A stretch of DNA of 64,000 nt from Malacoraja senta. Taxonomy: Eukaryota. The stretch spans positions 434,001 to 498,000 of the forward strand of contig CM075988.1 in NCBI GenBank assembly GCA_038087875.1, read 5' to 3'. Positions 6,661 through 59,756 of the stretch are shown piece after piece. Below the pieces are notes generated by a model, which worked only from the letters and a program-made list of their open reading frames with translations, was not told the DNA's origin and did no database searches. The position numbers and the translations under genes are program-made. Position 1 is the stretch's first letter. Each line of letters starts with the position of its first letter.

Positions 6661-8945
6661 ATCTGGGCAAATTTATTCCCAACCTCAGCGATCTATCTGT
6701 CCCCCTGCGACAACTGACGCACAAGGACACAGCATGGTCCTGGTACCCGCAACATCAATGAGTCTTCGAGACACAGCGAGCCAGTGCACTGATGCTGCCG
6801 TATTTCAACCTCAAGCCGCCGATCACCATCACCTGCGATGCATCCCAGTACGGGCTAGGTGCGGCGTGCCTACAGACAATCACCGACGGTGATGTGATGC
6901 CTGTCTCCAATGCATCACAAACCCTAACGGACATTGAACAACGCTATGCTCAAATTGAAAAGGAGCTGCTCGCCGTAGTTTTTTGCCTGTTCGAAATTCA
7001 AGGTCTTAATTTTTGGAAAAACCATCACTGATGAGACTGACCATCAGCCGCTAGTCACAATCCTGAACAAACCCATCCACGCTGCCCCGGCTCGTCTACA
7101 ACGCATGATGATGCAGCTGCAGTGTTTTGACTTCCGCATCATATACAGGAAAGGTAAAGACATGCACATACCAGACACGCATTCCAGACACTACCAGCAA
7201 ACGCCACCCCATCGAATGAGACGAATTCTCGTTCAAGAAAGTCTCGTTCGTGCCCACTGATCGTCTATGACGCCTTGCCGAGCACACAGCTGCGGACAAA
7301 ACTTCACAACTGCTAACTATCGTCATAAAGAACGGATGGCCCCACAAACAGTCAAACACCCCACTAGAAATACGACCCTACTTCCTGGTTCGTGAAGAGC
7401 TAGTGCTACAGGACGGGATAATCGTCAAAGGCCACAAGGCAGTCTTCCCTCCCACTCTACGGGGTGAGTACTATGACGATATCCACAGAGGCCACCCCGG
7501 CACAGAGACCACTCTAACACGGGCCCAAAACATGTTCTACTGGCCCGGAATGACAAGGCTCATACGTGAAAAGACCGAATCGTGCTCTACATCAATGACA
7601 CCACATCAGCAGAAGCAGCCCCTCCTGCCTCAGCCAGCTCCCTCCCTTCCGGGATCTTCACTGGCCGCCGACATCTTTGAATGGCACGGGAAACACTACC
7701 TTGTTTTGGTGGACTCCTACTCGAGCTGGTTCAAAATTGACCTGCTTCCAACGATCACCTCCGAGACAGTGATCCAGAAACTGCCAATCCACCTGTCCAT
7801 GCTTGGGGCACCTGTCCGCCTTCAAACTGACAATGGAAGGCAATTCACCAGTCAGAAATTCAAGAACTTTGCCGAATGGTGGAACTTTCAACACGTCACC
7901 AGCAGCCCAGAATACCCACAGTCCAATGGACTTGCCGAGCGTGCTGTTCGGAGCGCTAAACAACTCATGGAGCGCTCCTACCCAGCAAAATCTGACGTCT
8001 ACCTGGACCTACTCTACCTGCGGAACATTTCAAGGGACAGCGTTGTCGGCTCCCCCGCCCAGCGGCTAATGTCTCGCCAGACGCGTCCACCACTGCCTGT
8101 CTCCCAGCAACAGCTGCAGCCGCAGGTCCGTTCTCCCACCGCGATACAAAAGCGAGTGCAGTTTAAACGCGACACGCAAAAGCGGTTTTATGACAAGACC
8201 AGCAAGCCGCTTAAACCACTAGTACAAGGACAAGTGGTACACCTACAAACTGACAAAGGACATACCAAACTAGGGCACATTCATGGCCCTTGAAAGGACC
8301 CACGCCCCCACCTGGTCAAAGTGGATGGTGTCCTCTACAGTGGCAACCGTCAACATCTCCTACCAGTGAAGAAACCTCGTCCGGCGCCTGCGGGTCCTGA
8401 TGCCCCCCCATTCGTCTTTATACCAACGCCTTTTGCAGCCTTCCCACCACCTGTTGCGACCAAGACCACACACTCCCCGCGTTGGTCTGCCCCTGCGTCT
8501 CCTGTTGTAACCGGTGCCCCAGCCTCCCCGCGTCGGTCTACCCCCGGTTCCCCCATGGCGGTCTCTCCCCACAAGCCCATCGGGTCACCAGCGGCATTAC
8601 CAACCCCAGTCCACATCTTTTCGGAAGGAAAGGGGGATGAGGCGGTTCCTTACCGCACGAGGACCGGGTGGGTTAGTAGGCCACCCACTAGATACGGCGA
8701 TTTTGTTTAACCGTACCATATTCCCTCAGCTTATTGTTTAATGTGCCTTAGTTGCTTTTCATTTCTACGAGAAGAGATGTAGATTGGCTATTGCATGTTA
8801 GCCAATCAGAAGGCTTAGTAGTAATAACCCTGCCTAGTGCATGCTTTATAGTAAGGAGTCATTTATTATATACAGTAGTTGCAGCAGACTGAACGTACAA
8901 TGTACTCTAGATCGGACACTGGAATGTCTATTAAACATGCTTACA
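6661..8945 (+). mobile_element. Gypsy/Ty3 LTR retrotransposon 3' half (RT end, RNase H, integrase, PPT, 3' LTR)
   Basis: RNase H motifs CDASQYGLGA and YAQIEKELLA; integrase HHCC remnant, VLVDSYS, TDNGRQF, PQSNGLAERAV; purine tract before an LTR running TGTA(8778)...TACA(8945). Confidence 0.92.
8778..8945 (+). repeat. Short (about 168 bp) 3' LTR
   Basis: TG...CA ends, preceded by gagaagaga; contains CCAAT, a TATA-like run and ATTAAA. Confidence 0.65.
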
Positions 8946-12730: not shown

Positions 12731-15252
12731 GGTACACAAAAATGCTGGAGAAACTCAGCGGGTGCAGCAGCATCTATGGAGCGAAGGAAATAGGCAACGT
12801 TTCAGGCCGAAACCCTTCTTCAGACTGATAGGGGGTGGGGAGAAGAAAGGAAAAAGGCGGAGGAGGAGCCCGAGGGCTGAGGGATGGGAGGAGACAACCA
12901 GAGGGCTGAGGAAGGGGAGGAGACAGCGAGGGCTAGCAAAATTGGGAGAATTCAATGTTCATGCCCCCAGGATGTAGACTGCCCAAGCGGAATATGAGGT
13001 GCATTTCCTCCAATTTCCGGTGTTGCTTGCTGTGGCCATGGAGGAGACCCAGGACAGAGAGGTCAGATACGGAATGGGAGGGGGAGTTGAAGTGCTGAGC
13101 CACCGGGAGGTCAGGTTGGTTATTGCGGACCGACCGGAGGTGTTCGGCGAACCGATCGCCAAGCCTTCGCTTGGTCTCACCGATGTAGATCAGCTGACAT
13201 CTAGAGTAGCGGATGCAATAGATGAGGTTGGAGGAGATGCAGGTGAACCTCTGTCGCACCTGGAACGACTGCTTGGGTCTTTGAATGGAGTCGAGGGGGG
13301 AGGTGAAGGGACAAGTGTTGCATCTCTTGTGGTTGCAAGGGAAAGTACCCAGGGAGGGTATGGTACGGGAGGGAAAGGACGAATTGACAAGGGAGTTACG
13401 GAGGGAGCGGTCTTTGCGGAAGGCAGACATGGGGGGAGATGGGAAGATGTGGCGAGTGGTGGGGTCATGTTGGAGGTGGCGAAACTGACGGAGGATCACT
13501 TGTTGTATGTGACGGCTGGTGGGGTGAAAGGTGAGGACTAGGGGACTCTGCCCTTGTTGTGAGTGGGGGGATGGGGAGAGAGAGCAGTGTTGCGGGGAAG
13601 AAGTGTAGTCCAGAAAGCCATGGGAGTCAGTAGGTTTATAGTGAATGTCGGTCAGAAGTCTATCACCTGCGATGGAGATAGTGAGGTCAAGGAATGGTAG
13701 GGAAGTGTCGGAAATGGTCCAGGTGTATTTGAGTGCCGGATGGAAGTTGGTGGTGAAGCGGATGAAGTCAGTCAGTTGTGTGTGGGTGCAGGATGTGGCA
13801 CCAAAGCAGTCATCGATGTAGCGAAGGTAGAGGTCGGGGATGGGGCCCTGGTACGTATTGAACAAGGATTGTTCTACGCACTCGACAAAGAGGCAGGCGT
13901 AGCTGGGGCCCATGCCTGTGCCCATAGCTACGCCTTGTATTTGGAGGAAATGGGAGGAGTCAAATGAGAAGTTATTGAGGGTGAGGACCAGGGAGGGTGT
14001 CAGTGGCCGGGTATAGGTTGCTTCTCTGGTCGAGGAAGAACCAGAGGGCTTTGAGACCATCCTGGTGGGGGATGGAGGTGTACAATGACTGGACGTCCAT
14101 GGTGAAGATGAGGGGGTGAGGGCCTAGAGAATGGAATGCGCGGAGACGACGGAGAGTGTCTGAGGTGTCTTGAACATAGGTAGGGAGGGATTTAACCAAG
14201 GGGGATAGGATGGAGTCAAGGTAGGTGGAAATGAGTTCGGTGGGGCTCGAACAGGCAGAGACAATGGGTCTACCGGGACAGTCAGGTTTGTGGATTTTGG
14301 GGAGAAGGTAAAATCGGGCCATGCGGGGCTGGGGAATGATGAGGTTGGATGCTCGGTCGGGCAGGGCGTTGGAGTTGATGAAGTCGGTGATGGTGCTGGA
14401 GATGGTGGCCTGGTGCTCGTCAGTGGGGTCATGGTCCAGGGGTAAGTAGGAGGAGGTGTCCGAGAGTTGGCGCGTGGCCTCAGCTTTGTAGACATTGGCG
14501 CGCCAGACTACCACGGCACCTCCCTTGTTGGCGGGTTTGATAACCCAATCTGGGTTGTTGCGGAGTGAGTCGATGGCAGTGCATTCAGGGGGGGAGAGGT
14601 TGGCGTGAGACAGGGGAGTGGAGAAGTTGAGGCGGTAGTTTTTAATAAAGAGTTCTAAAGCCGGAAGGCTACGAGGGGGGTTCCATGAGGAGGGGGTGCG
14701 TTGGAGACGGGAAAAGGCGTCATCAGTGGGGGGCGAGGACTCCTTCCCATGGAAGTGCGCTGTGAGGCGGAGGCGACGGTAGAAACGTTCCAAGTCATGG
14801 AGGGTGCGGAACTTATTGAGGTGGGGACGGAGGGGGACAAAGGTAAGACCTCTGCTGAGGACAGACCGTTCGATGTCGGAGAGGGGGAGGTCGGGGGGGA
14901 TGGTGAACACCCGGCAGGGATGGGGGTTGGGGCCGGAGGAAGGCAGGTGGGTGGAATGGGGACGAGGCGACGTGTGGTGGGGGGGTGGTGGGTGGTCAGG
15001 GGGTGGGGGGGTGAGAGGGTTGTAGTGTGTGTGGGGAAGAGAAGTGGTCCCATAGTTGGAGAGGGATGGGGAAGAATCAGTGGAATTGCCACTGAGGTTA
15101 CCAGGGAAGGAAGACTAGCACTAGGACCCAGTGGAGTCAAACCCAGGAGAGTGGGAGTGAGCAGCGTGGAGGCTTCAGGCCCAGTACAGAGTCCAGTGAC
15201 GGCTGCTGGAGGGAGGGCAGTGGCGAGGGTCGGCGGACCCGATGCGATGGTC
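12731..15252 (-). mobile_element. Penelope-like retroelement (RT + GIY-YIG), frameshifted, 11-bp TSD
   Basis: IKPANKGGAVVV, PKIHKP, DVQSLYTSI, GVAMG, RYIDD, YIGETKR; TSD GGACAATGAAA at 12720-12730 and 15253-15263; empty site at about 43497-43507. Confidence 0.95.
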
Positions 15253-19191: not shown

Positions 19192-22100
19192 TAGAAACAG
19201 AGAAAATAGATGCAGGAGGAGGCCATTCGGCCCTTCGAGCCAGCACCGCCATTCATTGTGATCATGGCTGATCGTCCCCTATCAATAACCCGTGCCTGCC
19301 TTCTCCCCATATCCCTTGATTCCACTAGCCCCCAGAGCTGTATCTAACTCTCTCTTAAATCCATCCAGTGATTTGGCCTCCACTGCCCTCTGTGGCAGGG
19401 AATTCCATAAATTCACAACTTTCTGGGTGAAAACGTTTTTCTCACCTCAGTCTTAAATGACCTCCCCTTTATTCTAAGACTGTGGCCCCTGGTTCTGGAC
19501 TCGCCCAACATTGGGAACATTTTTCCTGCATCTAGCTTGTCCAGTCCTTTTATAATTTTATATGTTTCTATAAGATTCCCCCTCATCCTTCTAAACTCCA
19601 GTGAATACAAGCCTAGTCTTTTCAATCTTTCCTCATATGACAGTCCCACCATCCCAGGGATCAATCTCGTGAACCTACGCTGCACTGCCTCAATCACAAG
19701 GATGTCATTCCTCAAGTTAGGAAACCGAAACCGTACACAATACTCCAGATGTGGTCTCACCAGAGCCCTATACAACTGCAGAAGAACCTCTTTACTCCTA
19801 TACTGAAATCCTCTTGTTATGAAGGCCAAAATTCCATTAGCTTTCTTCACTGCCTGCTGTACCTGCACGCCAACTTACAAGGACATCCAGGTCTCGCTGT
19901 ACCTCCCCCTTACCTAACCTAACCCCATTGAGATAATAATCTGCCCCCTTGTTTTTGCCGCCAAAGTGGATAACCTCACATTTATCTATATTATACTGCA
20001 TCTGCCACACATCTGCCCACTCACTCAACCTGTCCAGGTCACACTGCAACCTCCTAACATCCTCTTCACAGCTCACACTGCCACCCAGCTTTGTGTCATC
20101 TGCAAACTTGCTAGTGTTGCTCTTAATTCCCTCTTACAAATCATTAATATATATGGTAAACAGTTGCGGCCCCAACACCGAGCCTTGCAGCACTCCACTC
20201 GCCACTGCCTGCCATTCTGAAAAGGACCCGTTCACTCCTACTCTTTGCTTCCGGTCTGCCAACCAATTTTCTATCCATGTCAACACCCTACCGCCAATAC
20301 CATGTGCTCTAATTTTAGTCACCAATCACCTTATCAAAGGCTTTCTGAAAGTCTAGATACACTACATCCACTGGCACCCCTTCATCCATTTTACATGTCA
20401 CATCCTCAAAAATTCAAGGATTTCCCTTTCATAAATCCATGTTGACTTGGACTAATCCTTTTACTGCTATCCAAATGCCCCATTATTACCTCTTTAATAA
20501 TTGACTCCAGCATCTTAACCATATAACCATAACAGCATGGAAACAGGCCATCTCGGCCCTTCAAGTCCGTGACAGACATTAATAAAAAATAAAAAATTAA
20601 AAATAAAATACTCCCCCCTAGTCCCATCTACCTGCACTCAGACCATAACCCTCCATTCCTTTCCCGTCCATATACCCATCCAATCTATTTTTAAAGGATA
20701 ACATCGAACCTGCCTCTACCACTTCCACTGGAAGCTCATTCCACACAGCTACCACTCTCTGAGTAAAGAAGTTCCCCCTAATGTTCCCCCTAAACTTCTG
20801 TCCCTTATTTCTCAAGTCATGTCCCCTTGTTTGAATCTTCCCTACTCTCAATGGGAAAAGCTTATCCACGTCCACTCTGTCTAACCCGCTCATAATTTTA
20901 AAGACCTCTATCAAGTCCCCTCTTAACCTTCTGCGCTCCAAAGAATAAAGACCTAACTTGTTCAACCTTTCTCTGTAACTTAGTTGCTGAAACCCAGGCA
21001 ACTTTCTAGTTAATCTCCTCTGTACTCTCTCTATTTTGTTGACATCCTTCCTATAATTAGGCGACCAAAATTGTACTCCATACTCCAGAATTGGCCTCAC
21101 CAATGCCTTGTACAATTTTAACATTACATCCCAACTTTTATATTCAATGCTCTGATTTATAAAGGCCAGCACACCAAAAGCTTTCTTTACCACCCTATCT
21201 ACATGAGATTCCACCTTCAGGGAACTATGCACAGTTATTCCTAGATCCCTCTGTTCAACTGCATTCCTCAATTCGCTACCATTTACCGTGTACGTCCTAT
21301 TTTGATTTGTCCTGCCGAGATGTAGCACCTCACATTTGTCAGCATTAAACTCCATCTGCCATCTTTCAGCCCACTCTTCCAAATGGCCTAAATCTCTCTG
21401 TAGACTTTGAAAATCTACTTCATTATCCACAGCCCCACCTATCTTAGTATCATCTGCATACTTACTAATCCAATTTTCCACACCATCATCCAGATCATTG
21501 ATGTACATGACAAACAACAGTGGACCCAACACAGACCCCTGAGGCACCCCACTAGTCATCGGCCTCCAACCTGACAAACAGCCATCCACCATTACTCTCT
21601 GGCATCTCCCATTCAGCCACTGTTGAATCCATCTTGTTACTCCACCATTAATACCCAACAGTTGAATCTTCTTAACCAACCTTCCATGAGGAACCTTGTC
21701 AAAGGCCTTACTGAAGTCCATATAGACAACATCCACTGCTTTACCCTCATCAATTTCCCTAGTAACCTCTTCGAAAAATTCAAGAAGATAAGTCAAGCAT
21801 GACCTTCCAGGCACAAATCCATGTTGACTGTTCCTAATCAGACCCTGCTTATCCAGATGCTTATATATATTATCTTTAAGTATCCTTTCCATTAATTTGC
21901 CCACCACTGACGTCAAACTAACAGGTCTATAATTGCTAGGTTTACTCTTCGAACCCTTTTTAAACAACGGAACAACATGCGCAGTACGCCAATCCTCCGG
22001 CACTATTCCCGTTTCTAATGACATTTGAAATATTTCTGTCATAGCCCCTGCTATTTCTACACTAACTTCCCTCAATGTCCTAGGGAATATCCTGTCAGGA

Positions 22101-24788
22101 CCTGGAGACTTATCCGTTTTCATATTTTTCAAAAGTGTCCGCACTTCCTCTTCTTTGAATCTCACAGTTTCCATTGCTACTCTGCTTGTTTCCCTTACCT
22201 CACATAATTCCATATCCTTCTCCTTCGTGAATACCGAAGAAAAGAAATTGTTCAATATCTCCCCCATCTCTTTTGGCTCTGCAGATAGCTGTCCACTCTG
22301 ACTCTCTAATGGACCAATTTTATTCCTTGTTATCCTTTTGCTATTAATATAGCTGTAGAAACCCTTTGGATTTACTTTCACCTTACTTGCCAAAGCAACC
22401 TCATATCTTCTTTTAGCTTTTCTAATTTCTTTCTTAATATTCTTTTTACATTCTTTATACTCCTCAAGCACCTCATTTACTCCATGCTGCCTATAATTAT
22501 TGTAGATCTCTCTCTTTTTCCGAACCGTGTGCAATTTCCCTTGAAAACCATGGCTCTTTCCATTTTTTACTATTTCCTTTCAACCGAACAGGGACATAAA
22601 GATTCTGTACTCTTAAAATTTCACCCTTAAATGTCCTCCATTTTTCTTCTACATCCTTCCCATAAAACAAACTGTCCCAATTCACTCCTTTTAAATCCTT
22701 TCGCATCTCCTCAAAGTTAGCCTTTCTGCAAACAAAAATCTCAACCCTAGGTCCAGTTCTGACCCTCTCCATAATTATATTGAAACTAATGGTATTGTGA
22801 TCACTGGACCCGAAGTGCTCCCCGACGCATACCTCCGCTACCTGCCCTGTCTCATTTCCTAACAGGAGGTCCAGCACTGCCCCTTCTCTAGTAGGTACCT
22901 CTATGTACTGCTGCAAAAAACTATCTTGCACACATTTTACAAACTCCAAACCATCCAGCCCTTTTACAGAATGTGTTTCCCAGTCTATGTGTGGAAAATT
23001 GAAATCTCCCACAATCACTACCTTGTGCTTACTACTAATATCTGCTATCTCCTTACATATTTGCTCTTCCAATTCTCGCTCCCCATTTGGCCGTCTATAA
23101 TACAGCCCTATAAGTGTTGCTACTCCTTTCCCATTTCTCAGTTCCACCCAAATAGCCTCCCTAGACGATCCCTCTAATCTATCCTGCCAAAGCACTGCTG
23201 TAATATCTTCCTTGACAAGCAATGCAACACCCCCACCTCTTGCCCCTCCAATTCTATCACCCCTGAAGCAACGAAATCCAGGAATATTTATTTGCCAATC
23301 ACAGCCCTCCTGCAACCATGTTTCACTGATCGCCACAACATCATACTTCCAGGTGTCAATCCAGGCTCTAAGCTCATCCACCTTTCTTACAATGCTCCTA
23401 GCATTAAAATATACACATTTAAGAAACCCACCACCACTTATTCTCTGTTTATTATCTTTTTCTTCTTTCTCACCTACATTTTGGGTCCGAGTGCTTCCCT
23501 TCTCTGCCTCCTGCCTCCCACATTTTCCACTAGCTTTCTCTATTTGAGTCCCTCCCCCCAACCGTTCTAGTTTAAAGTCTCCCCAGTAGCCTTTGCAAAT
23601 CTCCTCGCCCACAACCGGTCAGGCAAATCTTTCCCACAACCGGTCAGGCTAACTGGTCTGTAATTCCCCGTTTTCTCTCTCGCTCCTTTCTTGAAAAGTG
23701 GGATAACATTAGCTATCCTCCAATCCACAGGAACTGATCCTGAATCTATTGAACATTGGAAAATTATCACCAATGCGTCCACTATTTCTAGAGCCACCTC
23801 CCTGAGGACCCTGGGATGCAGACCATCAGGGCAGGGGATTTATCATCCTTCAGTCCCATTAGCCTACCCAATACTATTTCTCGACTAGTGAAAATTTATT
23901 TCAGTTCCTCTACCCCCTTAGATCCTCTGTCCTCCAGTACATCTGGGAGATTGTTTGTGTCTTCCTCAGTGAAGACAGATCCGAAGTACCTATTTAACTC
24001 TTCTGCCATTTCCTTGTTGCCCATAATAATTTCACCCGTGTCTGCCTTCAAGGGACCCACATTTGACTTTGCCACACTTTTTTCCTTAACATATCTAAAT
24101 ACGTTTTTACTGTCCTTCTTTATATTCCTGGCCAGCTTCCCCTCGGACTTCATCTTTTCAGCCCGTATTGCCCGTTTTGTTTCCTTCTGTTGTCCTATGA
24201 AAGTTTCCCAATCCTCTGGCTTCCGGCTACTCTTTGCTGTGTTATACATCTTAGTTTTATTCTATCCCTAACTTCTCTTGTCAGCCACGGTTGCCTTCTA
24301 CTCTCCTTAGAATCTTTCTTCCTTTTTGGAATGAAATGATCCTGCGTCTTCCGGATTATGCCCAGAAATTCTTGCCATTGCTGTTCCACCGTCATTCCTG
24401 CTAGGATCCCTTTCCAGTCTACCTTGGCCAGCTCCCCTTTCATGCCTTCATAGTCCCCTTTGTTCAACTGCATCACTGCCACTTCCGATTTAACGTTCTC
24501 CTTCTCAAATTGCACTACCTTCTCAAATGATCACTACCTCCAAGCGGTTCCTTTACCTCGAGTTCTCTTATCATATCTGGTTCATTGGATAACACTAAAT
24601 CCAGAATTGCCTATTCTCTGGTCGGCTCCATTACAAGCTGCTCTAAGAATCCATCTCGGAGGCACTCTACAAACTCTCTTTCTTTCGGTCCTGCACCAAC
24701 CTGATTTTCCCAGTCTACCTGCATATTGAAATCCCCCATCACCACAGTGGCATTACCTTCGTTACATGCCAGTTTTAACTCCTTGCAT
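19192..24788 (-). mobile_element. CR1 subfamily A, degenerate, interrupted by a CR1-B insertion
   Basis: RT fragments at 19413-20516; APE/linker fragments at 23627-24788. Confidence 0.92.
20517..23607 (-). mobile_element. CR1 subfamily B: ORF1 end plus near-complete ORF2 (APE+RT, one frameshift near 22530)
   Basis: NARS, ISETWL, GDFN, SDH, YRPVSL, DFSKAFD, YADD; (tatatggt)n tail; short TSD ATCTT. Confidence 0.96.
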
Positions 24789-28868: not shown

Positions 28869-29367
28869 GTGAGGTCTCATCTACATCTCTCATCTCATCT
28901 CCATCATCCCCATCTCCGTCCCCGTCTCCTTCACCATCCCCGTCTCCTTCCCAATCTCTATCCTCATCCCCATCCCCACCTCATATCCTTCTCAAATCTC
29001 AACAACGTCACGCCCGTGGTGGTCCTGTTGTACATGCCTGTCCTTATCAGGTGAGGTCTCTAATCCCATTCTCATCCTAATCTACATCTCCATCCCATCT
29101 CATCTCATCCCACCCTCATCATAATATCCCTCTCCATCTGATCCCATTTCATCTCCTTGTCAACTCATCACATCAACAGGTGGTGGCCCTGTTGCATACG
29201 GGGTTGCAGGCTCATCAGGTGAGGTCTCATCTCCATCTCCATTCTTTCTCCTCTCCCCTCCTCTCCATCTCCCCTCTTCTCCCCTTGCCCTCCCATTCCC
29301 CTCCTGCTGGTCTGACGTTTACCCTCTTACCCCCACCCTGACCTGATCTTTACCGTCTCACCCCCAG

Positions 29368-29529
29368 GTTTTTGGGGACCAAGTGGATGATGTTCTTGGC
29401 CATTGGAATCTACGCCCTCTTTGTCTCCACCAATTACTGGGAGCGTTACTACACCCTGGTCCCATCAGCAGTGGCCATTGGTGCGGTCATCGTACCACTC
29501 TGGGCGTCTGTGGGGAATTACGTTACTAG
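29368..29529 (+). CDS. UNC93B1: UNC93B1 coding exon 4
   Basis: FLGTKWMMFLAIGIYALFVSTNYWERYYTLVPSAVAIGAVIVPLWASVGNYVTR; cag| and AG|GTAC; phase 2 to 2. Confidence 0.97.
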   Translation, partial: VFGDQVDDVLGHWNLRPLCLHQLLGALLHPGPISSGHWCGHRTTLGVCGELRY

Positions 29530-30556
29530 GTACGTCCCCCCCCCCCCGCAGCCTAAATCCTCCGTACCCTCCCGTACTCTGCTCCCCGTACTCCAAACTA
29601 CTCCCTGTTCCACTGTGGGTGTCTATGGGGAACCACGTCACCAAGTACGACCCGCATCTGTACCCCTGAACCCTCATACCGCTCCCCTCCTGTACCCCAA
29701 ACCACTCTGGTCGGGTCGGGAGGGCACAGGACAGAAGATTGGGAGGGGAGGGAAGGGGACAGAAGGGGTGGGGATGGGACGGGCAGAGCTGCCAAGTAGT
29801 ACGGATTTTCCGTATTTTGTACGGCAATGCGATCAGAATACGAATGTACGGATTTGCTTTGTAAAATACGGATTTTCCTGTTTCATCTTGCTGCTTAAAA
29901 AATGCAAAGATATAAAAAGTCATACTGTACCTCTAAACATTATAGCAGATTAAATCTATTAGCATTTTAAATTTCAAGATCTGGAAGCTTTGATCTGCGT
30001 GTCCCAGTCCAGGTTTAAACAGCGCTGTCAGTTTAACGCGTGGGAATTTAAGCGAACAGCGCTATGGGTTCTAGAAATAGTGCTCCCAGCTGGAGCGTTA
30101 TTGCCTTTACATATAGCGCTATGGCCACTGTGCAATCGGTCACACACTGTTAGGAGGTAGGGAGAAGGAGAGAGGGAGTAGGATGGAGGGAGGGAATAAG
30201 AGAGGGAGGGAGAATAAAAAGGAAGGAGAGAGGGAGAAAGAGAGGAGGGTGGGAGGGAAAGAGGGAGGGAGAGAGAGAGAGAGAAAGGGAGGGTGGGGGG
30301 GAGAGGGAGGGAAAGAGCGAAGGAGGGGGAGGCTTCCAAAATGGCTTCTACATCATCATCTGGTGCTAAAAGCAGGAAGCAGCCGTTCAAACAGCAGTAT
30401 ACAAAGAGATGGCAATGAATGCACTGTCAAGTAAGATGCGTAGAAGAAATGTCAATTGGTAGCAAAGTTATGCATCCTTGTACCCTTACATGGGTGTGAC
30501 CGCACATTAAAAAAAAAAAAAAAATTAAGCAAAATGGCATCGCGTAAAAATACTGA

Positions 30557-33500
30557 TTTCAAGTTCAAGTCAAGTGAGTTTATTGTCATGTGTCCCTGAT
30601 AGGACAATTAAATTCTTGCTTTGCTTCAGCACAACAGAACATAGTAGGCATTAACTACAAAACAGATCAGTGTGTCCATATACCATTCTATAAATATAAA
30701 CACACATGAATAAATAAACTGATAAAGTGCAAATAACAGATAATGGGTTATTATTAATGTTGAGTTTTGTCCGAGCCAGGTTTAATAGCCTGATGGCTGT
30801 GGGGAAGTAATAATGATAATAATAATAATGGATGGGATTTATATAGCGCCTTTCTAATACTCAAGGCGCTTTACATCGCATTATTCATTCACTCCTCAGT
30901 CACACTCGGTGGTGGTGAGCTACTTCTGTAGCCACAGCTGCCCTGGGGCAGACTGACGGAAGCGTGGCTGCTAATCTGCGCCTACGGCCCCTCCGACCAC
31001 CACCAATCACTCACACACATTCACACACATTCACACGCAGGTAAAGGTGGGTGAAGTGTCTTGCCCAAGGACACAACGACAGTATGCACTCCAAGCGGGA
31101 TTCGAACCGGCTACCTTCCGGTTGCCAGCCGAACACTTAGCCCATTGCGCCATCTGTCGTCCAAAGTAGCTATTCCTGAACCTGGTCGTTGCAGTCTTCA
31201 GGCTCCTGTACCTTCTACCTGAAGGTAGCAGGGAGATGAGTGTGTGGCCAGGATGGTGTGGGTCCTTGATGATACTGCCAGCCTTTTTGAGGCAGCGACT
31301 GTGATAGATCCCCTCGATGGAAGGTAGGTCAGAGCCGATGATGGACTGGGCAGTGTTTACTACTTTTTGTAGTCTTTTCCTCTCCATGGTACTCAAGTTG
31401 CCGAACCAAGCCACGATGCAACCGGTCAGCATGCTCTCTACTGTGCACCTGTAGAAGTTAGAGAGAGTCCTCCTTGACAAACCGACTCTCCGTAATCTTC
31501 TCAGGAAGTAGAGGCGCTGATGTGCTTTCTTAATAATGGCATCAGTGTTCTCGGACCAGGAAAGATCTTCAGAGATGTGCACGCCCAGGAATATGAAGCT
31601 CTTGACCCTTTCAACCATCGACCCGTTGATATAAACGGGACTGTGGGTCCCCATCCTACTCCTTCCAAAGTCCACAATCAGTTCCTTGGTTTTGCTGGTG
31701 TTGAGGGCCAGGTTATTGTGCTGGCACCATATGGACAGTCACTCGATCTCTCTTCTATACTCTGACTCATCCCCATCAGTGATACGTCCCACAACAGTGG
31801 TGTCGGCAGCGAACTTGATGATGGAGTTCACACTATGTCCGGCTACGCAGTCATGAGTATAGAGTGAGTACAGCAGGGGGCTGAGCATGCAGCTTTGAGG
31901 TGCTCCCGTGCTGATTGTTATCGAGGCTGACACATTTCCACCAATACGAACAGACTGTGGTCTGTGAATGAGGAAGTCGAGGATCCAATTGCAGAGGGAT
32001 GCGCAGAGACCCAGTTCTGCGAGGTTGGTAACCAGCTTGGAGGGGATGATTGTGTTAAATGCCGAGCTGTAATCGATGAATAACAGCCTGACATATGAGT
32101 TTTTGTTGTCCAAGTGGTCCAGAGCGGAGTGGAGGGCCAGCGAGATCGCATCCACCGTTGATCTGTTGTGGCGGTAAGCGAACTGCAGTGGGTCCAGGTT
32201 TTTGTCGAGGTAGGAGTTGATTTGCTCCATGATCAACCTCTCTAAGCACTTCATCACCACGGGCGTTAGTGTCACAGGTCGATAGTCATTGAGGCACGTC
32301 ACCTTACTCTTCTTGGGCACTGGTATAATCGATGCCCTTTTAAGCCAGGTGGGGACCTCAGACCTCAGAAGTGAAAGGTTGAAAATGTCCGTAAAGACTC
32401 CAGCTAGTTGGTCCGCACAGGTTTTTAGAACACGACCGGGTATACCATCAGGTCCAGGCGCTTTTCGAGGGTTCACCCCTCTGAAGGATTTCCTGACGTC
32501 GGCCTCTGTGACTGAGACTGAAATACCATCACAGCGAATGGGGGCTCGGGAAGGCACATCGGTGTTCTCCCTATCAAAGCGTGCGTAAAACGCATTGAGC
32601 TCATCAGGGAGTGATGTTTCTGTACTGTCCTCACCTCTGGGGGTGCGCTCTTTAATTGCTGCCTGTAGGCAGGAAGAAGCAACACCGTGGTATGGTCGGA
32701 TTTACCGAAGTGAGGGCGAGGGATAGAACGATAGGCATTCTTGATGGTGGTGTAGCAGTGGTCGAGGGTGTTTGGTCCTCTGGTGCAGCAGGAGACATGT
32801 TGGTGGAAGTTAGGGAGTGATTTCTTTAGGTTTGCCTTATTGAAGTCCCTGGCTATGGTGGTGAACGCCACGGGATAAGACGTCTGGTGTTTGTTGACCA
32901 TGGCGTGCAGCTCCTCCAGTGCCAGACGGACGTCTGCCTGGGGTGGGATGTAGACCGCGGTCATGATGATGGAGGTGAATTCCCTTGGGAGGTAGAAGGG
33001 ACGACACTTCACCGCCAGATGTTCGAGGTGTGGAGAGCAGGAGTTGGACAGGACTGCCACTTCTGAGCACCACGCAGAGTTGACCATGAGGCAGACGCCC
33101 CCTCCTCTCCCTTTCCCAGATGCAAGTGTACGGTCCATACGGTGGATGGAGAAACCTTCAGGCTGGACCGCTGAGTCTGGGGAGCTGGGGGGTGAGACAT
33201 GTCTCTGTGAAACAGAACACAGAGCATTCCCTCAGCTCCCTTTGACAAAGCAGCCTTGCCCTTAAGTCCTCCACTTTATTTTCAAGGGACTGTACGTTGG
33301 CCAGTAGGATAGTAGGGAGAGGGGGTCGAAGTCCCCTGCGCTTCAGTCTGACCTGAAGTCCTGCCCGTCGGCCACGTTTCCGGACACAATGGAAGCTCCC
33401 CCTTTGTTTCCAGGTGCTGAGTTTACTGTACCTGCTGTTTCTGCGGACCTGCTCTGGAACGGGGATTCCTTCACAGACGGCAGCTCCAGCTCCGTAACGA

Positions 33501-37780: not shown

Positions 37781-40700
37781 TTTTAAATTTTTTTATTTTT
37801 AATTTTATTTATTAGAAGCACATTACGTTACAACCACATCCATTAGTACTCGTCACATATATTTTAATACAATTAATGTACTCCGGTTTTTTTTAACATT
37901 AATAAAGGGAGAGGATAAGATTAAGAGAAAGAGGAAAGTGAAGGAAAAGGTGAAAGTGTAAAAAAAAAAAAAAAACCGTGACAACAAGAAAGAACAAAGA
38001 CCCTATAAGAAAACGAGTTAAGAAGTAGATCCTAGAAAAGAAGAAGAAAAAGAGAAAGGAAAAAGAGAAGAACAAATACCTTTTTTATCAGCATCCTGCA
38101 AATGGGACATACCAAATCTCCAATTTTCATCCCCCCCCTACCCGACCTCAGTTTTTTTTTAAAGTACCTTTGCACCCTAATAATTCTATAAATGCCGACC
38201 ACGTCAGGAGGAAGTGGTCTGGTTTACCTGCCAGGAGGAGTCTTATCTCTTCTAGGTGTAATGTTTCAAACATATTTGAAATCCACATGTTTATAGTTGG
38301 TATTGGAGCATTTTTCCAAAATTTTAGGATTCACTTTTTTCCAGTTATTAACCCATAGTCTATTAGTTTCTTTTGAAACACATTTAGTTCTGGACTATCT
38401 TCCGTTATTCGGAAGATAATCCATTCTGCTTTGGGTATCAGTTTTATTTTAAATAATTTTGTAAAGATTTCAAAAATGTCAATCCAAAATTTTTGAATTT
38501 TTGTACAAAAGACCAATGAATGGGCTATAGTAGCTTCTTGAGATTGACATTTATCACAGTTTGATGATATATTTGGGAAAATTTTATGGATTTTAGTTTT
38601 AGAATAGTATAATCTATGTAAAATTTTGAATTGTATTAAAGTATGTCTTACATTTATCGAACATTTATGCACTTTTAATAAGTATTCATTCCACTTTTCC
38701 TTTGAGATTTTAATAGCTAAATCTTGTTCCCATTCTCTTCTAATACCCGTAGATGGTATTTCTACATTTAAGATAATATTATACAAATATGATATTGAAT
38801 TTGCTGAATCAGCTTTTATCTGCATTGCATCATCCAAAACATCTACTGGGCTATTATAATGATCTTTTATATATTTTTTCAAATAGTCACATATTTGAAA
38901 ATATTTAAAATATTGATTATTTCCAAGTTTATATTTTATTTGTAATTGCTGAAATGATAGTAATTTTCCAGTTTCATACAGGTCACCGAACGTTTTAATT
39001 CCTAGTCTATCCCATTGTATGAAGGCTTTATCTGTAGTAGAGGGATTAAACAAAGGGTTATTAACTATGGGAGATAAAAGTGAAAAATGTCTTAATTTTA
39101 AATTTTGTTTTATTTGTTTCCAAATTCTGATTGTACTATGTATGATTGGGTTCTTATTATAGTTTATGTTATCCAGTTTCGTTGGTGAGAGGAGGATCGC
39201 TCCAATGTTTCTAGAGGAACAGTCCTCTCTCTCCATTACAATCCAATCCACTTGCTGAGCAATATCCATCAGTTGAATCATATTTTTAATATTTACTGAC
39301 CAATAATAATACATGAAAGTAATGAGTGCTAAGCCCCCTAGTACTTTGGGTTTGTTCAGGTGTATTCTTTGTATTCTATGTGGTTATATGGTTATATGGT
39401 TATGTGATTTATAGTCCCATATAAAATTAGTAATGTCTGAGTCCAGTTTTTAAAAAACTTCTTTGGTAAGTATATAGGAATCGATTGAAATAGGTATAAA
39501 ATTTGTGGAAGAAAGATCATTTTTATTGCATTTATTCGGCCTATTAAAGACATCGGGAGCGTTTTCCAAAATTTAATTAATGTATTTAATTTATTAAGTA
39601 AAGGCTCAAAATTTGCTTTAAACATACCTTGATATGTTCAGGGATTTAAATTTTTCTGTAGCTATTTTAAAAGGGAATTTTAAAAGATGTGTTGAGTCTT
39701 TCGGTTTTATTGACATAATTTCACTTTTATTCCAGTTTATTCTATATCCAGAAAAAGATCCAAAGTCTTCAATTAAGTTTAATATATTTGGTATAGTGAT
39801 TTGAGGTTTTGTAATGTACAGTAATATATCATCCGCGTATAAAGATATTTTATTATTTGAGTATTTAGTATTATACCCATGGATATCGGGATGTATTCTA
39901 ATTTTTTCTGCTAACGGTTCAATTATAAGAGCAAACAACTGTGGTGATAATGAGCACCCTTGTCTATTTCCCCTTGATAGTTGAAATTTTGAAGATAATA
40001 TATTATTAGTTAATATTCTAGCTGTAGGTTTATTATATAGTAATTTAATCCATAAAATAAAATTCTTTCCCAATTGGAATTTTTCTAATACTTTATCCAT
40101 ATAATTCCATTCTACTTGATCAAATGCTTTTTCAGCGTCCAGCGAAATAATTGATAATTCTTGTTCTTCAAATTTATGTGAATGCATTATATTGAGTAAA
40201 CGTCTCATATTATTAGCTGAGTATCTCTTCGGGATAAACCCCGTCTGATCTGGATTTATTAGTTTGCTAATATATTTACTTAATCTTCTAGGTAATGTTT
40301 TTGCTAATATTTTTTTATCTGTGTTTAACAGTGCAATAGCTCTATATGAACCCGGTTCTTCTATATCTTTGTTTTTTTAAAGTTTTAATGTAATCGTTGA
40401 TTCAGCTAATGTATCAGGTAGTATTTGTTTTTTAAAAGCATGTTGGTACATTTTTTGTAATCTAGGTATAATTTTATCATAGAAATTTTTATAAAATTCA
40501 TTAGTAAATCCATCAGGACCTGGAGTTTTTCCATTCTTTAGTGATTTTATTGTATCTTCTAATTCCTTAATTGAAATTTGTGCTCCCAATTCCTCTTGTT
40601 CCTTCACCTCTAACTTTGGAAGATTACAGTTATCCAGAAACTCAGTAATTTTATAGGAATCAGTTGTCGTTTTAGATGTATACAGATTCTCATAAAATTG

Positions 40701-55907: not shown

Positions 55908-57766
55908 TGGTGCCAGGATCCAGGATGTCACGGACAGAGTGCAGAAAATCTTCAAGGGCGAAGGTGAACAGCCGGAAGTGGTAGTGCATGTCGGCACAAA
56001 CGATGTCGGAAAGAAGGAGATGAATATTCTGCAGCGTGACTTTAGAGAGCTCGGTAAAATGCTGAAAAGCAGAACCTCCAGGGTTGTAATCTCTGGTTTG
56101 CTTCCAGTTCCTCGTGCTGGCGAGAACAGGAACAGGAAGATACAGGACCTGAATGTGTGGCTGTGCAACTGGTGCAGGGGGCAGGGATTTAGATTCTTAG
56201 ATCACTGGGAACTGTTTTGGAGTAAGGGGGAGCTGTACAAAAGGACAGATTGCATCTTAACAGGTGGGGGACCAGCATTCTGGCAGGCAGGTTTGCCACT
56301 GCTACACGGGTGGTTTTAAACTGAATAAGGGGGGTGGGGTGTCAAATGGGATAGTCGAGGACGGAGTTATAGGGAAAGAGAGTAAAGGGATGGTTAATGA
56401 CCCCAGAATTAACGGGAAAGGAAGCTCACAAAGGGATAGGAGACTATGCCCTAGTGTAATAGGGATCGATGTGAAAGGTGAGATGCGTAAGGAATTAAAA
56501 GTATTGTATATGAATGCGCGAAGTATAAGAAGTAAAGTAGATGAGCTTGAGGCTCAGTTAGAGGTTGGTAGATATGACATTGTAGGGATTACTGAGACGT
56601 GGCTGCAGGAGGATCGGGCCTGGGAACATAATATTCAGGGTTATACATCCTAAAGAATGGACAGGCAGGTGGGAAGAGGAGGGGGGTAGCTCTGCTGTTG
56701 AGGGATGGAATTCAGTCCCTTGCGAGGGAAGGCACAGGGACTGACGAGGTAGAGTCACTGTGGATTGAGTTGAGGAATTGTAAAGGCAAGAAGACACTAA
56801 TTGGTGTTATCTACAGACCCCCAAATAATAGCCCGGATGTAGGGTGTAAGTTGCAGCAGGAGTTAAAACTGGCATGTAACAACGGTAATGCCACTGTGGT
56901 GATGGGGGATTTCAATATGCAGGTCGACTGGGAAAATCAGGTTGGTTCAGGACCCCAAGAAAGAGAGTTTGTAGAATGCCTCCGAGATGGATTCTTAGAG
57001 CAGCTTGTAATGGAGCCGACCAGAGAACAGGCAATTCTGGATTTAGTGTTGTCCAATGTCAGATATGATAAGAGAACTCGAGGTAAAGGAACCGCTTGGA
57101 GGTAGGGATCATAATATGATTAGTTTTAATCTGCAATTTGAGAAGGACAACGTTAAATTGGAAGTGGCAGTGATGCAGTTGAACAAAGGGGACTATGAAG
57201 GCATGAGAGGGGAGCTGGCCAAAGTAGACTGGAAAGGGATCCTAGCAGGAATGACGGTGGAACAGCAATGGCAGGAATTTCTGGGCATAATCCGGGAGAC
57301 GCAGGATCATTTCATTCCAAAAAGGAAGAAAGATTCTAAGGGGAGTAGGAGGCAACCGTGGCTGACAAGAGAAGTTAGGGATAGAATAAAACTAAAAGAA
57401 AAGATGTATAACACAGCAAAGAGCAGCCGGAAGCCCGAGGATTGGGAAACTTTCATAGGACAACAGAAGGAAACAAGACGGGCAATACGGGCTGAAAAGA
57501 TGAAGTACGAGGGGAAGCTGGACAGGAATATAAAGAAGGACAGTAAAAGTTTCTTTAGATATGTTAAGGGAAAAAGAAAAGCCAAGTCAAATGTGGGTCC
57601 CTTGAAGGCAGACACGGGTGAAATTATTATGGGCAACAAGGAAATGGCAGAAGAGTTGAATAGGTACTTCGGATCTGTCTTCACTAAGGAAGACTCAAAC
57701 AATCTCCCCGTTATACTGGAGGACAGAGGATCTAAGGGTATAGAGGAACTGAAAGAAATTTTCATT
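55908..57766 (+). mobile_element. CR1 subfamily A: ORF1 3' half (esterase) plus ORF2 APE/linker, degenerate
   Basis: VVVHVGTND; LYMNARS, ITETWL, GDFN. Confidence 0.93.
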
Positions 57767-59756
57767 AAAACACTGATTGGCTCTAGCCCAAGAGGGAGGA
57801 GCCCAAGAGGGAGGAGAGACGTGAGTCAGAGGGGGGAAAACAGTTGAAAAGGAGAGGCAAAGCACAGGCAGACTTTACTCAGAGCTGCTGTAGATTTGGA
57901 AGCAACAGCAGGAGAAGATTAGCAAGAGAAAACACTGATTGGCTCTAGCCCAAGAGGGAGGAGAGAAGTGAGTCAAAGCGGGGAAAACAGTTGAAAACTG
58001 AGGAATTTGGATTGTAAATTGATAAATTAGGCAATTTATCAGTCAATATAAGCAAGACTGCTCTTAGGGAGCGGCCTTGTGAGAAAAGTGTGAGTCTTTG
58101 GCTCTAGAGTCTTCGGCGAGGAGGCTGAGGGAGGACGCTACGCAAAACACTGCAGAGGGAGAGACGAAAGAAGGAGATGTCAGGCAAGCTGATTCAGTGT
58201 GATGCTTGCAGTATGTGGGAGGTCAAGGACACTGCTGGTGCCTCTGGCTGCTACAAATGTGAGAAGTGCATCCAGGTACAGCTCCTGAAGGGCCGTGTTG
58301 GGGAACTGGAGAAGCAAGTGGATGACCTCAGGTTTTTCCGAGAAACGGAGTCGTTCCTCGACAAGTCCTACAGTAAGATTGTTACACCTAAGGTACTGGA
58401 AGAGAGAAGGTGGGAGACAGTGAGAAAGGGAGGGAAGCATGGAATGCAAACGTCCCCGGGTGTTGTACCTCTTGTGAACAGGTTCACCCACTTAGAAGCT
58501 GTCGGGACAGAAGACGTTTTAACACTGAGCGACAGACTGGCTTGCGATGCGAATAGGGCTGTTGAGCCAGAACCAAAAAGGCCAAAGTCAGGCAACGCCA
58601 TTGTAGTGGGAGACTCCATTGTGAGAGGTACGGACAGGGGTTTCTGCGGCAACAGACGGGATTCGAGGATGGTGTGCTGCCTTCCTGGTGCCAGGATCCA
58701 GGATGTCACGGACAGAGTGCAGAAAATCCTCAAGGGCGAAGGAGAACAGCCGGACGTGGTAGTGCATGTCGGCACAAACGATGTCGGAAAGAAGGGGATG
58801 AATATTCTGCAGCGTGACTTTAGAGAGCTCGGAAAAATGCTGAAAAGCAGGACCTCCAGGGTTGTTATCTCCGGTTTGCTTCCAGTTCCTCGTGCTGGCG
58901 AGAGCAGGAACAGGGAGATACGGGACCTGAATGTGTGGCTGAGGAACTGGTGCAGGGGGCAGGGATTTAGATTCTTAGACCACTGGGATATGTTTTGGAG
59001 TAAAAGGGAACTGTACAAAAGGGACGGATTGCATCTTAACAGGTGGGGGACCAGCATTCTGGCAGGCAGGTTTGCCACTGCTACATGGGTGGTTTTAAAC
59101 TGAATAAGGGTGGTGGGGTGTCGAATGGGATAGTTGAGGATGGAGTTAAAGGAAAAGGGTTTCTTAAATGTGTGAGCGTAGACACAGAGGGGTGTAAAAT
59201 GAGGGTAGAAGCAATAAGTAGCAAGGTGAAAAGTAAAAGTGGCAGGCAGAGCAAAATCCAGGGCACAAATCAAAAAGGGCCACTTTTCAACATAATTGTA
59301 TAAGGGGTAAGAGTGTTGTAAAAACAAGCCTAAAGGCTTTGTGTCTCAATGCAAGGAGCATTCGTAATAAGGTGGATGAGTTGAATGTGCAGATAGCTAT
59401 TAATGACTATGATATAGTTGGGATCACGGAGACATGGCTCCAGGGTAACCATGGCTGGGAGCTGAACATCCAGGGATATTCAATATTCAGGAAGGATAGA
59501 CAGAAAGGGAAAGGAGGTGGGGTAGCATTGCTGGTTAGAGAGCAGATTAACGCAATAGAAAGGAAGGACATTAGCTTGGAGGATGTGGAATCAATATGGG
59601 TAGAGCTGCGAAACACTAAGGGGCAGAAAACGCTAGTGGGAGTTGTGTACAGGCCACCTAACAGTGGTAGTGGAGTTGAGGATGGTATCAAACAGGAAAT
59701 TAGAAATGCGTGCAACAAAGGTAAAACAGTTATAATGGGTGACTTCAATCTACATA
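57767..59756 (+). mobile_element. CR1 5' portion: 5' UTR, intact ORF1 and start of ORF2
   Basis: Tandem 5' UTR units, ORF1 at 58177-59103, APE motifs from 59339; cut by CR1-B at about 59757. Confidence 0.93.
58177..59103 (+). CDS. CR1 ORF1p (C4 zinc finger, coiled coil, SGNH esterase), intact 308 aa
   Basis: CDAC...CEKC, heptad leucines, VGDSIVR, HVGTND, DGLHLN. Confidence 0.9.
   Translation: MSGKLIQCDACSMWEVKDTAGASGCYKCEKCIQVQLLKGRVGELEKQVDDLRFFRETESFLDKSYSKIVTPKVLEERRWETVRKGGKHGMQTSPGVVPLVNRFTHLEAVGTEDVLTLSDRLACDANRAVEPEPKRPKSGNAIVVGDSIVRGTDRGFCGNRRDSRMVCCLPGARIQDVTDRVQKILKGEGEQPDVVVHVGTNDVGKKGMNILQRDFRELGKMLKSRTSRVVISGLLPVPRAGESRNREIRDLNVWLRNWCRGQGFRFLDHWDMFWSKRELYKRDGLHLNRWGTSILAGRFATATWVVLN

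Follow-up and report, generated by a model that had tools for sequence, protein, structure and literature searches.

A putative programmed −1 frameshift site at the end of ORF1 in CR1-clade LINEs of Malacoraja senta and other vertebrates

How is the second open reading frame (ORF2) of a long interspersed nuclear element (LINE) translated when ORF1 ends on a slippery sequence and no start codon precedes the endonuclease in the −1 frame? The question is raised by a copy of a CR1-clade element (the focal copy; minus strand, 23606 to 20517) in a 64,000-nucleotide stretch of the Malacoraja senta genome (assembly GCA_038087875.1, contig CM075988.1, positions 434,001 to 498,000 of the forward strand), hereafter called the window. 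An earlier note on this DNA had proposed that ORF2 is made as an ORF1–ORF2 fusion by programmed −1 frameshifting. Our comparisons support this proposal at the level of sequence, through the invariance of the heptamer, the fixed −1 phase of ORF2 and a −1 frame that is closed upstream, and we consider it probable that −1 frameshifting at U_UUA_AAC yields a fusion protein and is common to the vertebrate CR1 elements with an esterase ORF1. The site is real and deeply conserved, and programmed −1 frameshifting is its simplest reading.

The ORF1–ORF2 junction of the focal copy

The focal copy is a CR1-clade LINE, truncated at its 5' end and inserted within the reverse transcriptase (RT) of another CR1. 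The features that bear on the translation of ORF2 are the following.

23570..23576, minus strand: slippery heptamer T_TTA_AAC, arranged X_XXY_YYZ in the phase of ORF1 (context GAG ACT TTA AAC TAG)
23567..23569, minus strand: ORF1 stop codon TAG, adjoining the heptamer
23567..23606, minus strand: remaining 3' tail of ORF1 (…ARRFAKATGETLN*), final helix of the SGNH esterase, compared with the C-termini of the proteins P0019 and P0026
23550..23563, minus strand: G-rich tract GGTTGGGGGGAGGG, 6 nt past the heptamer, a candidate stimulator
23559-23554 and 23552-23550, minus strand: conserved core G-run (10 nt past the heptamer) and second run
23412..23576, minus strand: −1-frame linker of 55 codons without AUG (FKLERLGGG…GFLKCV), from the shift site to the motif of the apurinic/apyrimidinic endonuclease (APE)
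22797..23408, minus strand: APE endonuclease of ORF2 (PF03372, Exo_endo_phos, −1-frame residues 57-260, E 4.8e-17)
22770..22772, minus strand: earliest in-frame ATG of ORF2, codon 269, beyond the APE domain

The end of ORF1, with the heptamer at 23576-23570 and the stop codon at 23569-23567, reads as the earlier note had described it, and the G-rich tract lies where it had been placed, about 6 nt downstream (23563-23550). The −1 frame, said in the same note to run open through the endonuclease, does so: it comprises 359 open codons from 23576 (FKLERLGGG...FLKCVYFNARS...) and includes the Pfam match. Its first methionine is likewise found only past the APE domain (ATG 22772), all 15 ATGs ahead of codon 269 being out of frame; an in-frame TTG stands at 23561.

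About 13 ORF1 codons are left in the focal copy, and the sequence upstream of about 23607 belongs to the RT of the other CR1. The tail is assigned to the end of ORF1 because the esterase ORF1 proteins P0019 and P0026 terminate in RFAKATGETLN or KFAKATGETLN, matching it, and because the loose ends at 23609 of 520 RNA reads and 28 contigs encode HLNPRGTNIL, that is, the continuation of ORF1.

Several features place the focal copy in the CR1 clade. ORF2 combines an N-terminal APE with a central RT (PF03372 and PF00078), the tail matches esterase ORF1s, and a 3' microsatellite tail, 5' truncation and a short target-site duplication are present. In addition, a sister ORF1 in the window (P0001) has a zinc-finger-like N-terminus followed by an SGNH esterase (PF13472), and the ORF1 profile matches the ZfL2-1 ORF1 protein (ORF1p) structure 4C1B at E 1e-42. 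The focal RT shares 47-48% identity over about 620 aa with the bird-type loci L004 and L014, in pairwise comparison, and 22-27% with two other LINEs in the window. The bird-type elements are known as CR1.

Conservation of the heptamer and of the −1 phase

The bare heptamer is not diagnostic; its position is what counts. The window contains 29 copies of TTTAAAC where 9.2 would be expected, and this raw count was discarded as evidence, as the excess comes mostly from other repeats. Six of the 29 copies are followed by a stop codon; a G-run accompanies three of the six, and these three mark the CR1 ORF1 ends, namely the focal junction and two sister junctions.

59094..59103, plus strand: sister junction TTTAAAC TGA (GTT TTA AAC TGA), closing the complete ORF1 at 58129-59103 (P0001)
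56315..56324, plus strand: sister junction TTTAAAC TGA (GTT TTA AAC TGA), with the −1 frame open for 64 codons to the APE motif

A metagenome scan yielded 35 further loci, of which the 13 with a CR1-type junction were kept. Those left out were 18 loci that end ahead of the junction (L003 inside the heptamer), three L2-like loci (L011, L027 and L030), and L035, which resembles an unrelated bacterial hydrolase. Many contigs of one assembly break off within or just before the end of ORF1 (L003, L006, L009, L010, L013, L015-L020 and others), so that fewer junctions were usable. The resulting set of 16 junctions, three from the window and 13 from the metagenome loci, falls into about six lineages, grouped by eye: the focal family, the 56315/59094 pair (one lineage, because the two are 92-93% identical around the junction), L001, L002, eight bird type-I loci and three bird type-II loci. 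Scans of viral contigs, with either the vertebrate ORF1 alignment or the distant x-Lys-Asn group described below, and scans of genome contigs revealed no relatives; L036, the one viral match of a scan with the APE part, was weak and unrelated and was not used.

TTAAAC is present in all 16 junctions and TTTAAAC in 15, the remaining one (L002) having GTTAAAC, and the stop codon follows directly in 15 (L024 has TGC). In 12 junctions the position of the APE motif, behind linkers of 33-93 codons, could be established; it lies in the −1 frame in 11 of these, and the −1 frame is stop-free to the motif in 9 of the 12. Conservation of the heptamer and its phase, put forward in the earlier note as a check on its proposal, was thereby borne out. 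Furthermore, the −1 frame is closed by a stop codon 2-6 codons upstream of the heptamer in 8 of 16 junctions, and therefore initiation upstream cannot enter it; entry is only at or after the site.

One alternative holds that the heptamer reflects protein constraint, that is, a required C-terminal Leu-Asn of ORF1p, perhaps with an overlapping ORF2 protein (ORF2p) sequence FKL begun upstream, together with shared ancestry. The invariance of Leu-Asn in proteins is what it would predict, and TTTAAACT encodes FKL in another place as well, towards the end of amniote CR1 ORF2 (PMC4316615; this and the other papers are cited for the passages concerned). Codon usage in the same ORF1s nevertheless makes this reading very improbable, and we regard it as largely refuted. 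TTA accounts for 17 of 142 Leu codons, AAC for 25 of 57 Asn codons and T for 25% of third positions, giving a joint expectation of 0.013 for T, TTA and AAC when Leu-Asn alone is required. In 11 of the 16 junctions the conserved columns and the silent sites were compared. At five conserved Leu columns TTA is used twice in 49 codons, and a conserved Asn column has 6 AAT and 5 AAC. As for ancestry, the 59094 copy (W59094), L001, L002 and the bird-type loci, compared at fourfold sites with 4-17 sites to a pair, have identities of 0.0-0.67, most of them 0.2-0.35, so that silent ORF1 sites are, on this measure, saturated between groups. The −1-frame stops upstream in 8 of 16 junctions also leave an upstream start no room. 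Finally, the solved ZfL2-1 esterase chain (4C1B) stops two residues before the profile end, without Leu-Asn, and the esterase fold therefore does not need these residues. Judged from these codon comparisons, the heptamer is conserved beyond protein constraint.

A search with the esterase part of P0001 extended the comparison to proteins; the best 120 of 131 proteins were considered, and ranks 2-79 were counted. Of these 78 proteins, 66 extend to the last conserved motif and 58 of the 66 end in Leu-Asn, 55 of them exactly 20 residues past the motif; the other eight are truncated, fused or changed. The best ORF1 matches are from little skate, and among the named sources are rays, sharks, coelacanth, a teleost, frogs and a turtle; in one homologue, from a lizard, the end is LK. 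The residue ahead of Leu-Asn is variable (G, T, Y, A, C, S, F, L, D or H), and K, E, Q, M or W, none of which has a codon ending in U, stand there in 0 of 58 proteins; at the two preceding positions they are counted 35 and 25 times, the background being 19%. A bird-type query (L007; best 120 of 446 proteins, the named ones from birds) gave the same picture, with 98 of the 107 proteins that reach the end finishing in Leu-Asn, mostly after Ala, and none of the 98 with a forbidden residue before it. In ranks 80-121 of the P0001 search the Leu-Asn end is found in just 2 of 36, and the feature therefore belongs to the vertebrate group. All these counts come from the unfiltered lists; alignment A1, with 50 of 121 proteins mostly picked for their Leu-Asn ends, served only as a search query. 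One CR1 ORF1 protein (P0005) is labelled Pseudomonas aeruginosa; it comes from a contig of 4.2 kb and is probably host contamination.

The two sister copies showed peculiarities of their own. Between 56200-56600 and 59000-59450 (plus strand), the end of ORF1 and about 60 nt past the heptamer are alike (92-93%), and the linkers and APE parts then diverge, a pattern suggestive of module exchange with a breakpoint just behind the shift site. The 59094 linker contains a 34-nt piece resembling the APE start of the focal family. In this copy (59094-59345, plus strand) the APE motif is not in the −1 frame, probably because the linker has gained or lost one base, and a CG-to-TG difference, absent from the 56315 copy, creates a −1-frame ATG 3 codons ahead of the heptamer.

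Mechanism and rival readings

Under the frameshift reading, ribosomes would read ORF1 to U_UUA_AAC, with the stop as the next codon. The majority would terminate and release ORF1p with its Leu-Asn end; a minority would slip back one base by tandem re-pairing of tRNA-Leu and tRNA-Asn from UUA AAC to UUU AAA, cross the variable linker of 33-93 codons into the APE and RT part, and produce an ORF1p–ORF2p fusion. The fraction that slips would then set a ratio like that of Gag to Gag-Pol. The likely stimulators would be the adjacent stop codon and the G-run about 10 nt downstream, acting as a protein-bound linear motif or a G-quadruplex, without a classic hairpin or pseudoknot. In Rous sarcoma virus and barley yellow dwarf virus, too, a stop codon directly follows the shift site. 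Two hallmarks of such sites are present in CR1, that is, a heptamer in zero-frame phase and a downstream −1 ORF open from the site. Moreover, U_UUA_AAC ranks among the most shift-prone heptamers on mammalian ribosomes, and G_UUA_AAC, the form in L002, is the tolerated form of equine arteritis virus (PMC5009743). G is found at offsets +17 to +21 in 13/15, 15/15, 14/15, 11/14 and 13/14 junctions, respectively, and a second G-run often follows the first by 7 nt across junctions.

A number of observations weigh against the frameshift reading. The first group concerns the stimulator. The earlier note had suggested folding the downstream 100 nt or so; the G-tract proved to be positionally kept, and no hairpin was found in the 107 nt past the stop codon of the focal copy (z +0.44, with 140 of 200 shuffles folding equally well). 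Across 14 junctions z ranged from −2.7 to +1.5 with no common fold. Nested folds and duplex scans, which made up the structure search, revealed no stem-loop or pseudoknot 5-9 nt downstream. A local hairpin or pseudoknot stem was rejected as stimulator on these z-scores, a G-quadruplex as universal stimulator because it is predicted in just 4 of 14 junctions, and a long-range partner of the G-run because the best duplexes fell at unrelated places, none of them consistent. Some known frameshift sites have no 3' stem-loop or pseudoknot (PMC5009743).

The second group concerns start codons and sampling. The absence of an AUG before the endonuclease, stressed in the earlier note, is true of the focal copy, L001 and L021; the other 8 of the 11 in-frame junctions have an in-frame AUG ahead of the APE motif, in 4 of the 11 at codons 23-90. 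In four of the eight bird type-I loci (L004, L005, L007 and L014) an ATG stands 2 nt past the stop codon. Furthermore, the 16 junctions amount to only about six lineages, and in 3 of 12 (W59094, L008 and L021) the −1 frame is not stop-free to the APE motif, which is probably due to decay.

RNA reads and natural fusions bear on the frameshift reading in both directions. A poly(A) RNA run from another organism (X23) gave 2754 reads, mostly 90-95% or less alike and thus of a related subfamily, a contig run (X1) gave 6577 contigs of related subfamilies, and the DNA runs X21 and X22 yielded 2 and 0 reads; runs with small shares were left aside. In favour of the reading, 26 differences in X23 and X1 fall in 23430-23564 and none in 23565-23587 among the variants listed, an invariance limited to these, with 21 lower-support variants outside them. 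The read depth is highest in the bin spanning the junction; reads lie on both strands, and thus do not demonstrate translation or sense transcripts of full length. Against the reading, a G-to-C change within the G-run is present in about 90% of X23 reads, and variants at 23547 (63%) and 23548 (43%) jointly create an in-frame ATG at codon 10, the share of reads with both lying between a minimum of about 6% and a maximum of 43%. A weak search for long natural ORF1–ORF2 fusions found none among 14 matches.

One database protein speaks for the frameshift reading: in P0033, of 425 aa and from a stingray, a single frame leads from the esterase by way of …REGFKLNLQG… to the APE motif. It has the shape of the predicted fusion, in one copy or gene model only, and either the gain or loss of one base close to the site or an artefact of gene modelling may account for it. 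P0033, together with the short T and A runs at the site, would also fit a joining of the frames in RNA by splicing, editing or polymerase slippage. This is the least probable of the readings considered, since the runs are just 3-5 nt long and no splice joint or indel occurs at the site among the variants listed for X23 and X1 at a 5% threshold, the X23 reads being from a related subfamily.

The main rival is termination-reinitiation as in L1 and SART1, with a restart at an AUG or other codon past the ORF1 UAG or UGA, a separate ORF2p, and a heptamer and G-run that pause or position the ribosome. We consider it improbable as the general mode. It can draw on the ATG 2 nt past the stop in L004, L005, L007 and L014, a GTG at the same place in L006 and L008, and the TTG at 23561 in the focal copy; L1 and SART1, moreover, are described as working in this way, and in caliciviruses reinitiation withstands changes of the start codon (PMC2881922, PMC5972666). 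Among the 16 junctions, however, no conserved start in the ORF2 frame is found near the ORF1 stop: the codon 2 nt past it is ATG in 4, GTG in 2 and another codon (CGG, AAG, AGG, GCG, TCG, TGG, GAC or GAA) in 10. Reinitiation also leaves unexplained the invariant slip-ready X_XXY_YYZ arrangement, the G_UUA_AAC variant, and a fixed −1 phase where no AUG precedes the APE motif (3/11). A restart independent of AUG is conceivable, and in the bird subfamilies with an AUG 2 nt past the stop, reinitiation may coexist with frameshifting.

Alternatively, TTTAAAC, the stop codon and the G-run could be a cis element that serves ribosome pausing, protection from nonsense-mediated decay, RNA packaging or protein binding, with no change of frame and ORF2 made by another route. 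The conservation at nucleotide level, which includes a G-run without a pairing partner, and the lack of a canonical stimulator are both compatible with such an element. A phase-independent motif, in contrast, need not occupy the X_XXY_YYZ phase at the last two codons of ORF1, nor would ORF2 have to lie in the −1 frame, as it does in 11 of 12 junctions; we therefore rate a cis element as less likely still than reinitiation.

Related systems and the surroundings of the locus

The closest parallels to the proposed frameshift are viral. Coronavirus infectious bronchitis virus (U_UUA_AAC) and equine arteritis virus (G_UUA_AAC) have the same heptamers in the same phase, with the replicase or RT in the −1 frame (PMC5009743); CR1 differs in that no pseudoknot or stem-loop was found 5-9 nt downstream, in its immediate stop, and in being a retrotransposon without long terminal repeats (non-LTR). 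In the gag-pol arrangement of retroviruses and Ty3/gypsy elements, including PEG10 and PNMA3, a structural ORF is likewise fused at low frequency to an enzymatic ORF through a heptamer (PMC5009743), whereas CR1 ORF1 is a coiled-coil/SGNH esterase protein rather than Gag, and no protease that would cut the fusion was seen. Trans-activated frameshifting in arteriviruses and cardioviruses (nsp1beta of PRRSV with PCBP) shows that a minority of stimulators start 12-15 nt past the site, may consist of linear RNA and involve proteins (PMC5009743). In CR1 the run begins with the 11th nucleotide and is G-rich, not C-rich, so that its resemblance to these sites is positional only. Natural G-quadruplex stimulators were anticipated but not yet known according to a 2016 review (PMC5009743).

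Among LINEs, recoding has already been proposed in other clades. In Dictyostelium TRE5-A and TRE3-A, which are APE-type non-LTR elements, ORF2 requires a −1 frameshift according to a review legend; they belong to another clade and another kingdom, and the passage gives no heptamer or measurement (PMC5911963). For Paramecium LINEs, +1 frameshifting, reinitiation or readthrough has been suggested (PMC5405496). Human L1 and silkworm SART1 share with CR1 a bicistronic LINE RNA, with ORF2 dependent on the translation of ORF1; unlike the proposed CR1 fusion, their termination-reinitiation, across a 63-nt spacer in L1 and at an overlapping stop-start in SART1, yields separate proteins (PMC2881922, PMC5972666). 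The relevant passages of these reviews on LINE ORF2 translation give reinitiation only, and those of PMC5009743 treat mammalian LINE ORF2 as novel initiation and leave CR1 unmentioned.

The CR1-clade LINEs with an esterase, such as chicken CR1 and the element encoding ZfL2-1 ORF1p, share the SGNH esterase ORF1, the APE-RT ORF2 and the microsatellite 3' end (PMC3905857), and passages of published descriptions of the clade give two ORFs without a frameshift signal. Term searches of PMC4120745, PMC8665684, PMC3905857, PMC4255032, PMC5006619 and PMC11835228 revealed nothing on a CR1 frameshift, and the supplementary files searched for PMC4316615 (file 2) and PMC8665684 (one file) contain no ORF1 junctions. 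In the literature searched, some key papers excepted, no earlier proposal of a CR1 frameshift was found. Turtle CR1 is said to have overlapping ORFs, and an earlier frameshift suggestion may exist there or in Repbase.

If the frameshift reading is correct, one of the major LINE clades of vertebrates would use retrovirus-like gene expression, in cartilaginous fishes as well as in birds, and the CR1 RT would be made fused to an esterase that binds lipids (PMC3905857). A CR1-type LINE with a slippery ORF1 end is common to sharks, rays, frogs, reptiles and birds and probably makes a fused protein, unlike the restart of L1. Annotations of CR1 ORF2 that begin at the first AUG would be wrong, and the −1 sites of CR1 would form a natural family that is large and does without a classic pseudoknot. 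In the chicken genome no repeat is more abundant than CR1, with >410,000 fragments (11.8%; PMC11835228), and CR1 also fills the 64-kb window.

A bolder and more doubtful extension, which we offer tentatively, is that the LINEs with an esterase ORF1 as a group recode to a Gag-Pol-like fusion and, like retroviruses, switch between modes: frameshifting at U_UUA_AAC in vertebrate CR1, UGA-C readthrough in L011, L027 and L030, and perhaps frameshifting at A_AAA_AAC in the distant x-Lys-Asn group. Within this extension the G-run site is possibly driven by a host protein or a G-quadruplex, and a membrane-binding esterase would carry the RT along.

The sequences of these relatives are noted here in their own right. 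The L2-like loci (L030 at about 4470-4480, L027 at about 740-750 and L011 at about 2945-2955) have an esterase ORF1 and no heptamer, and their TGA is followed by CTG, which resembles the UGA-C readthrough context. In L030 the frame of ORF1 stays open past the TGA to the APE motif (LLNVRSL). Distant ORF1 proteins (P0085-P0115, alignment A2; the one named is from a crab) have x-Lys-Asn in 19 of 22 cases at a similar distance past the last motif, and a variable tail comes after it; only residues that have a codon ending in A (P, S, T, A, R or Q) occur at x, compatible with A_AAA_AAC.

The remaining parts of the focal copy are as follows.

20618..22579, minus strand: remaining ORF2 including the RT, in a different frame from the APE part (decay)
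about 21952-21302, minus strand: PF00078 reverse transcriptase, E 2.2e-35
20517..20530, minus strand: 3' microsatellite end of the focal copy, ATGGTT-type repeats
23608..23649, minus strand: 5' insertion junction of the focal copy, the host being the RT of the other CR1

ORF2 is split over two frames near 22580-22500, and the focal copy is therefore decayed. The RT residues of the host CR1 break off at 23612 and continue at 20516, and the insertion is flanked by a 5-nt target-site duplication, AAGAT, at 23631-23627 and 20516-20512. At the 5' junction, 17 nt of target DNA are duplicated (23649-23633 and 23624-23608) and two extra T sit between the target-site duplication and the element, a configuration that would be characteristic of template jumping as reverse transcription comes to its end.

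Five other regions of the window, at 7271-8293 (plus), 12933-15114 (minus), 31031-33231 (minus), 38331-41276 (minus) and 29342-29953 (plus), were labelled from their translations only; we take them to include a gypsy-like integrase, a Penelope-like element with RT and GIY-YIG parts, two further LINE types and an apparent exon of a host membrane-protein gene. Long CA microsatellites are located at about 35.1-36.2 kb and 52.2-52.9 kb of the window.

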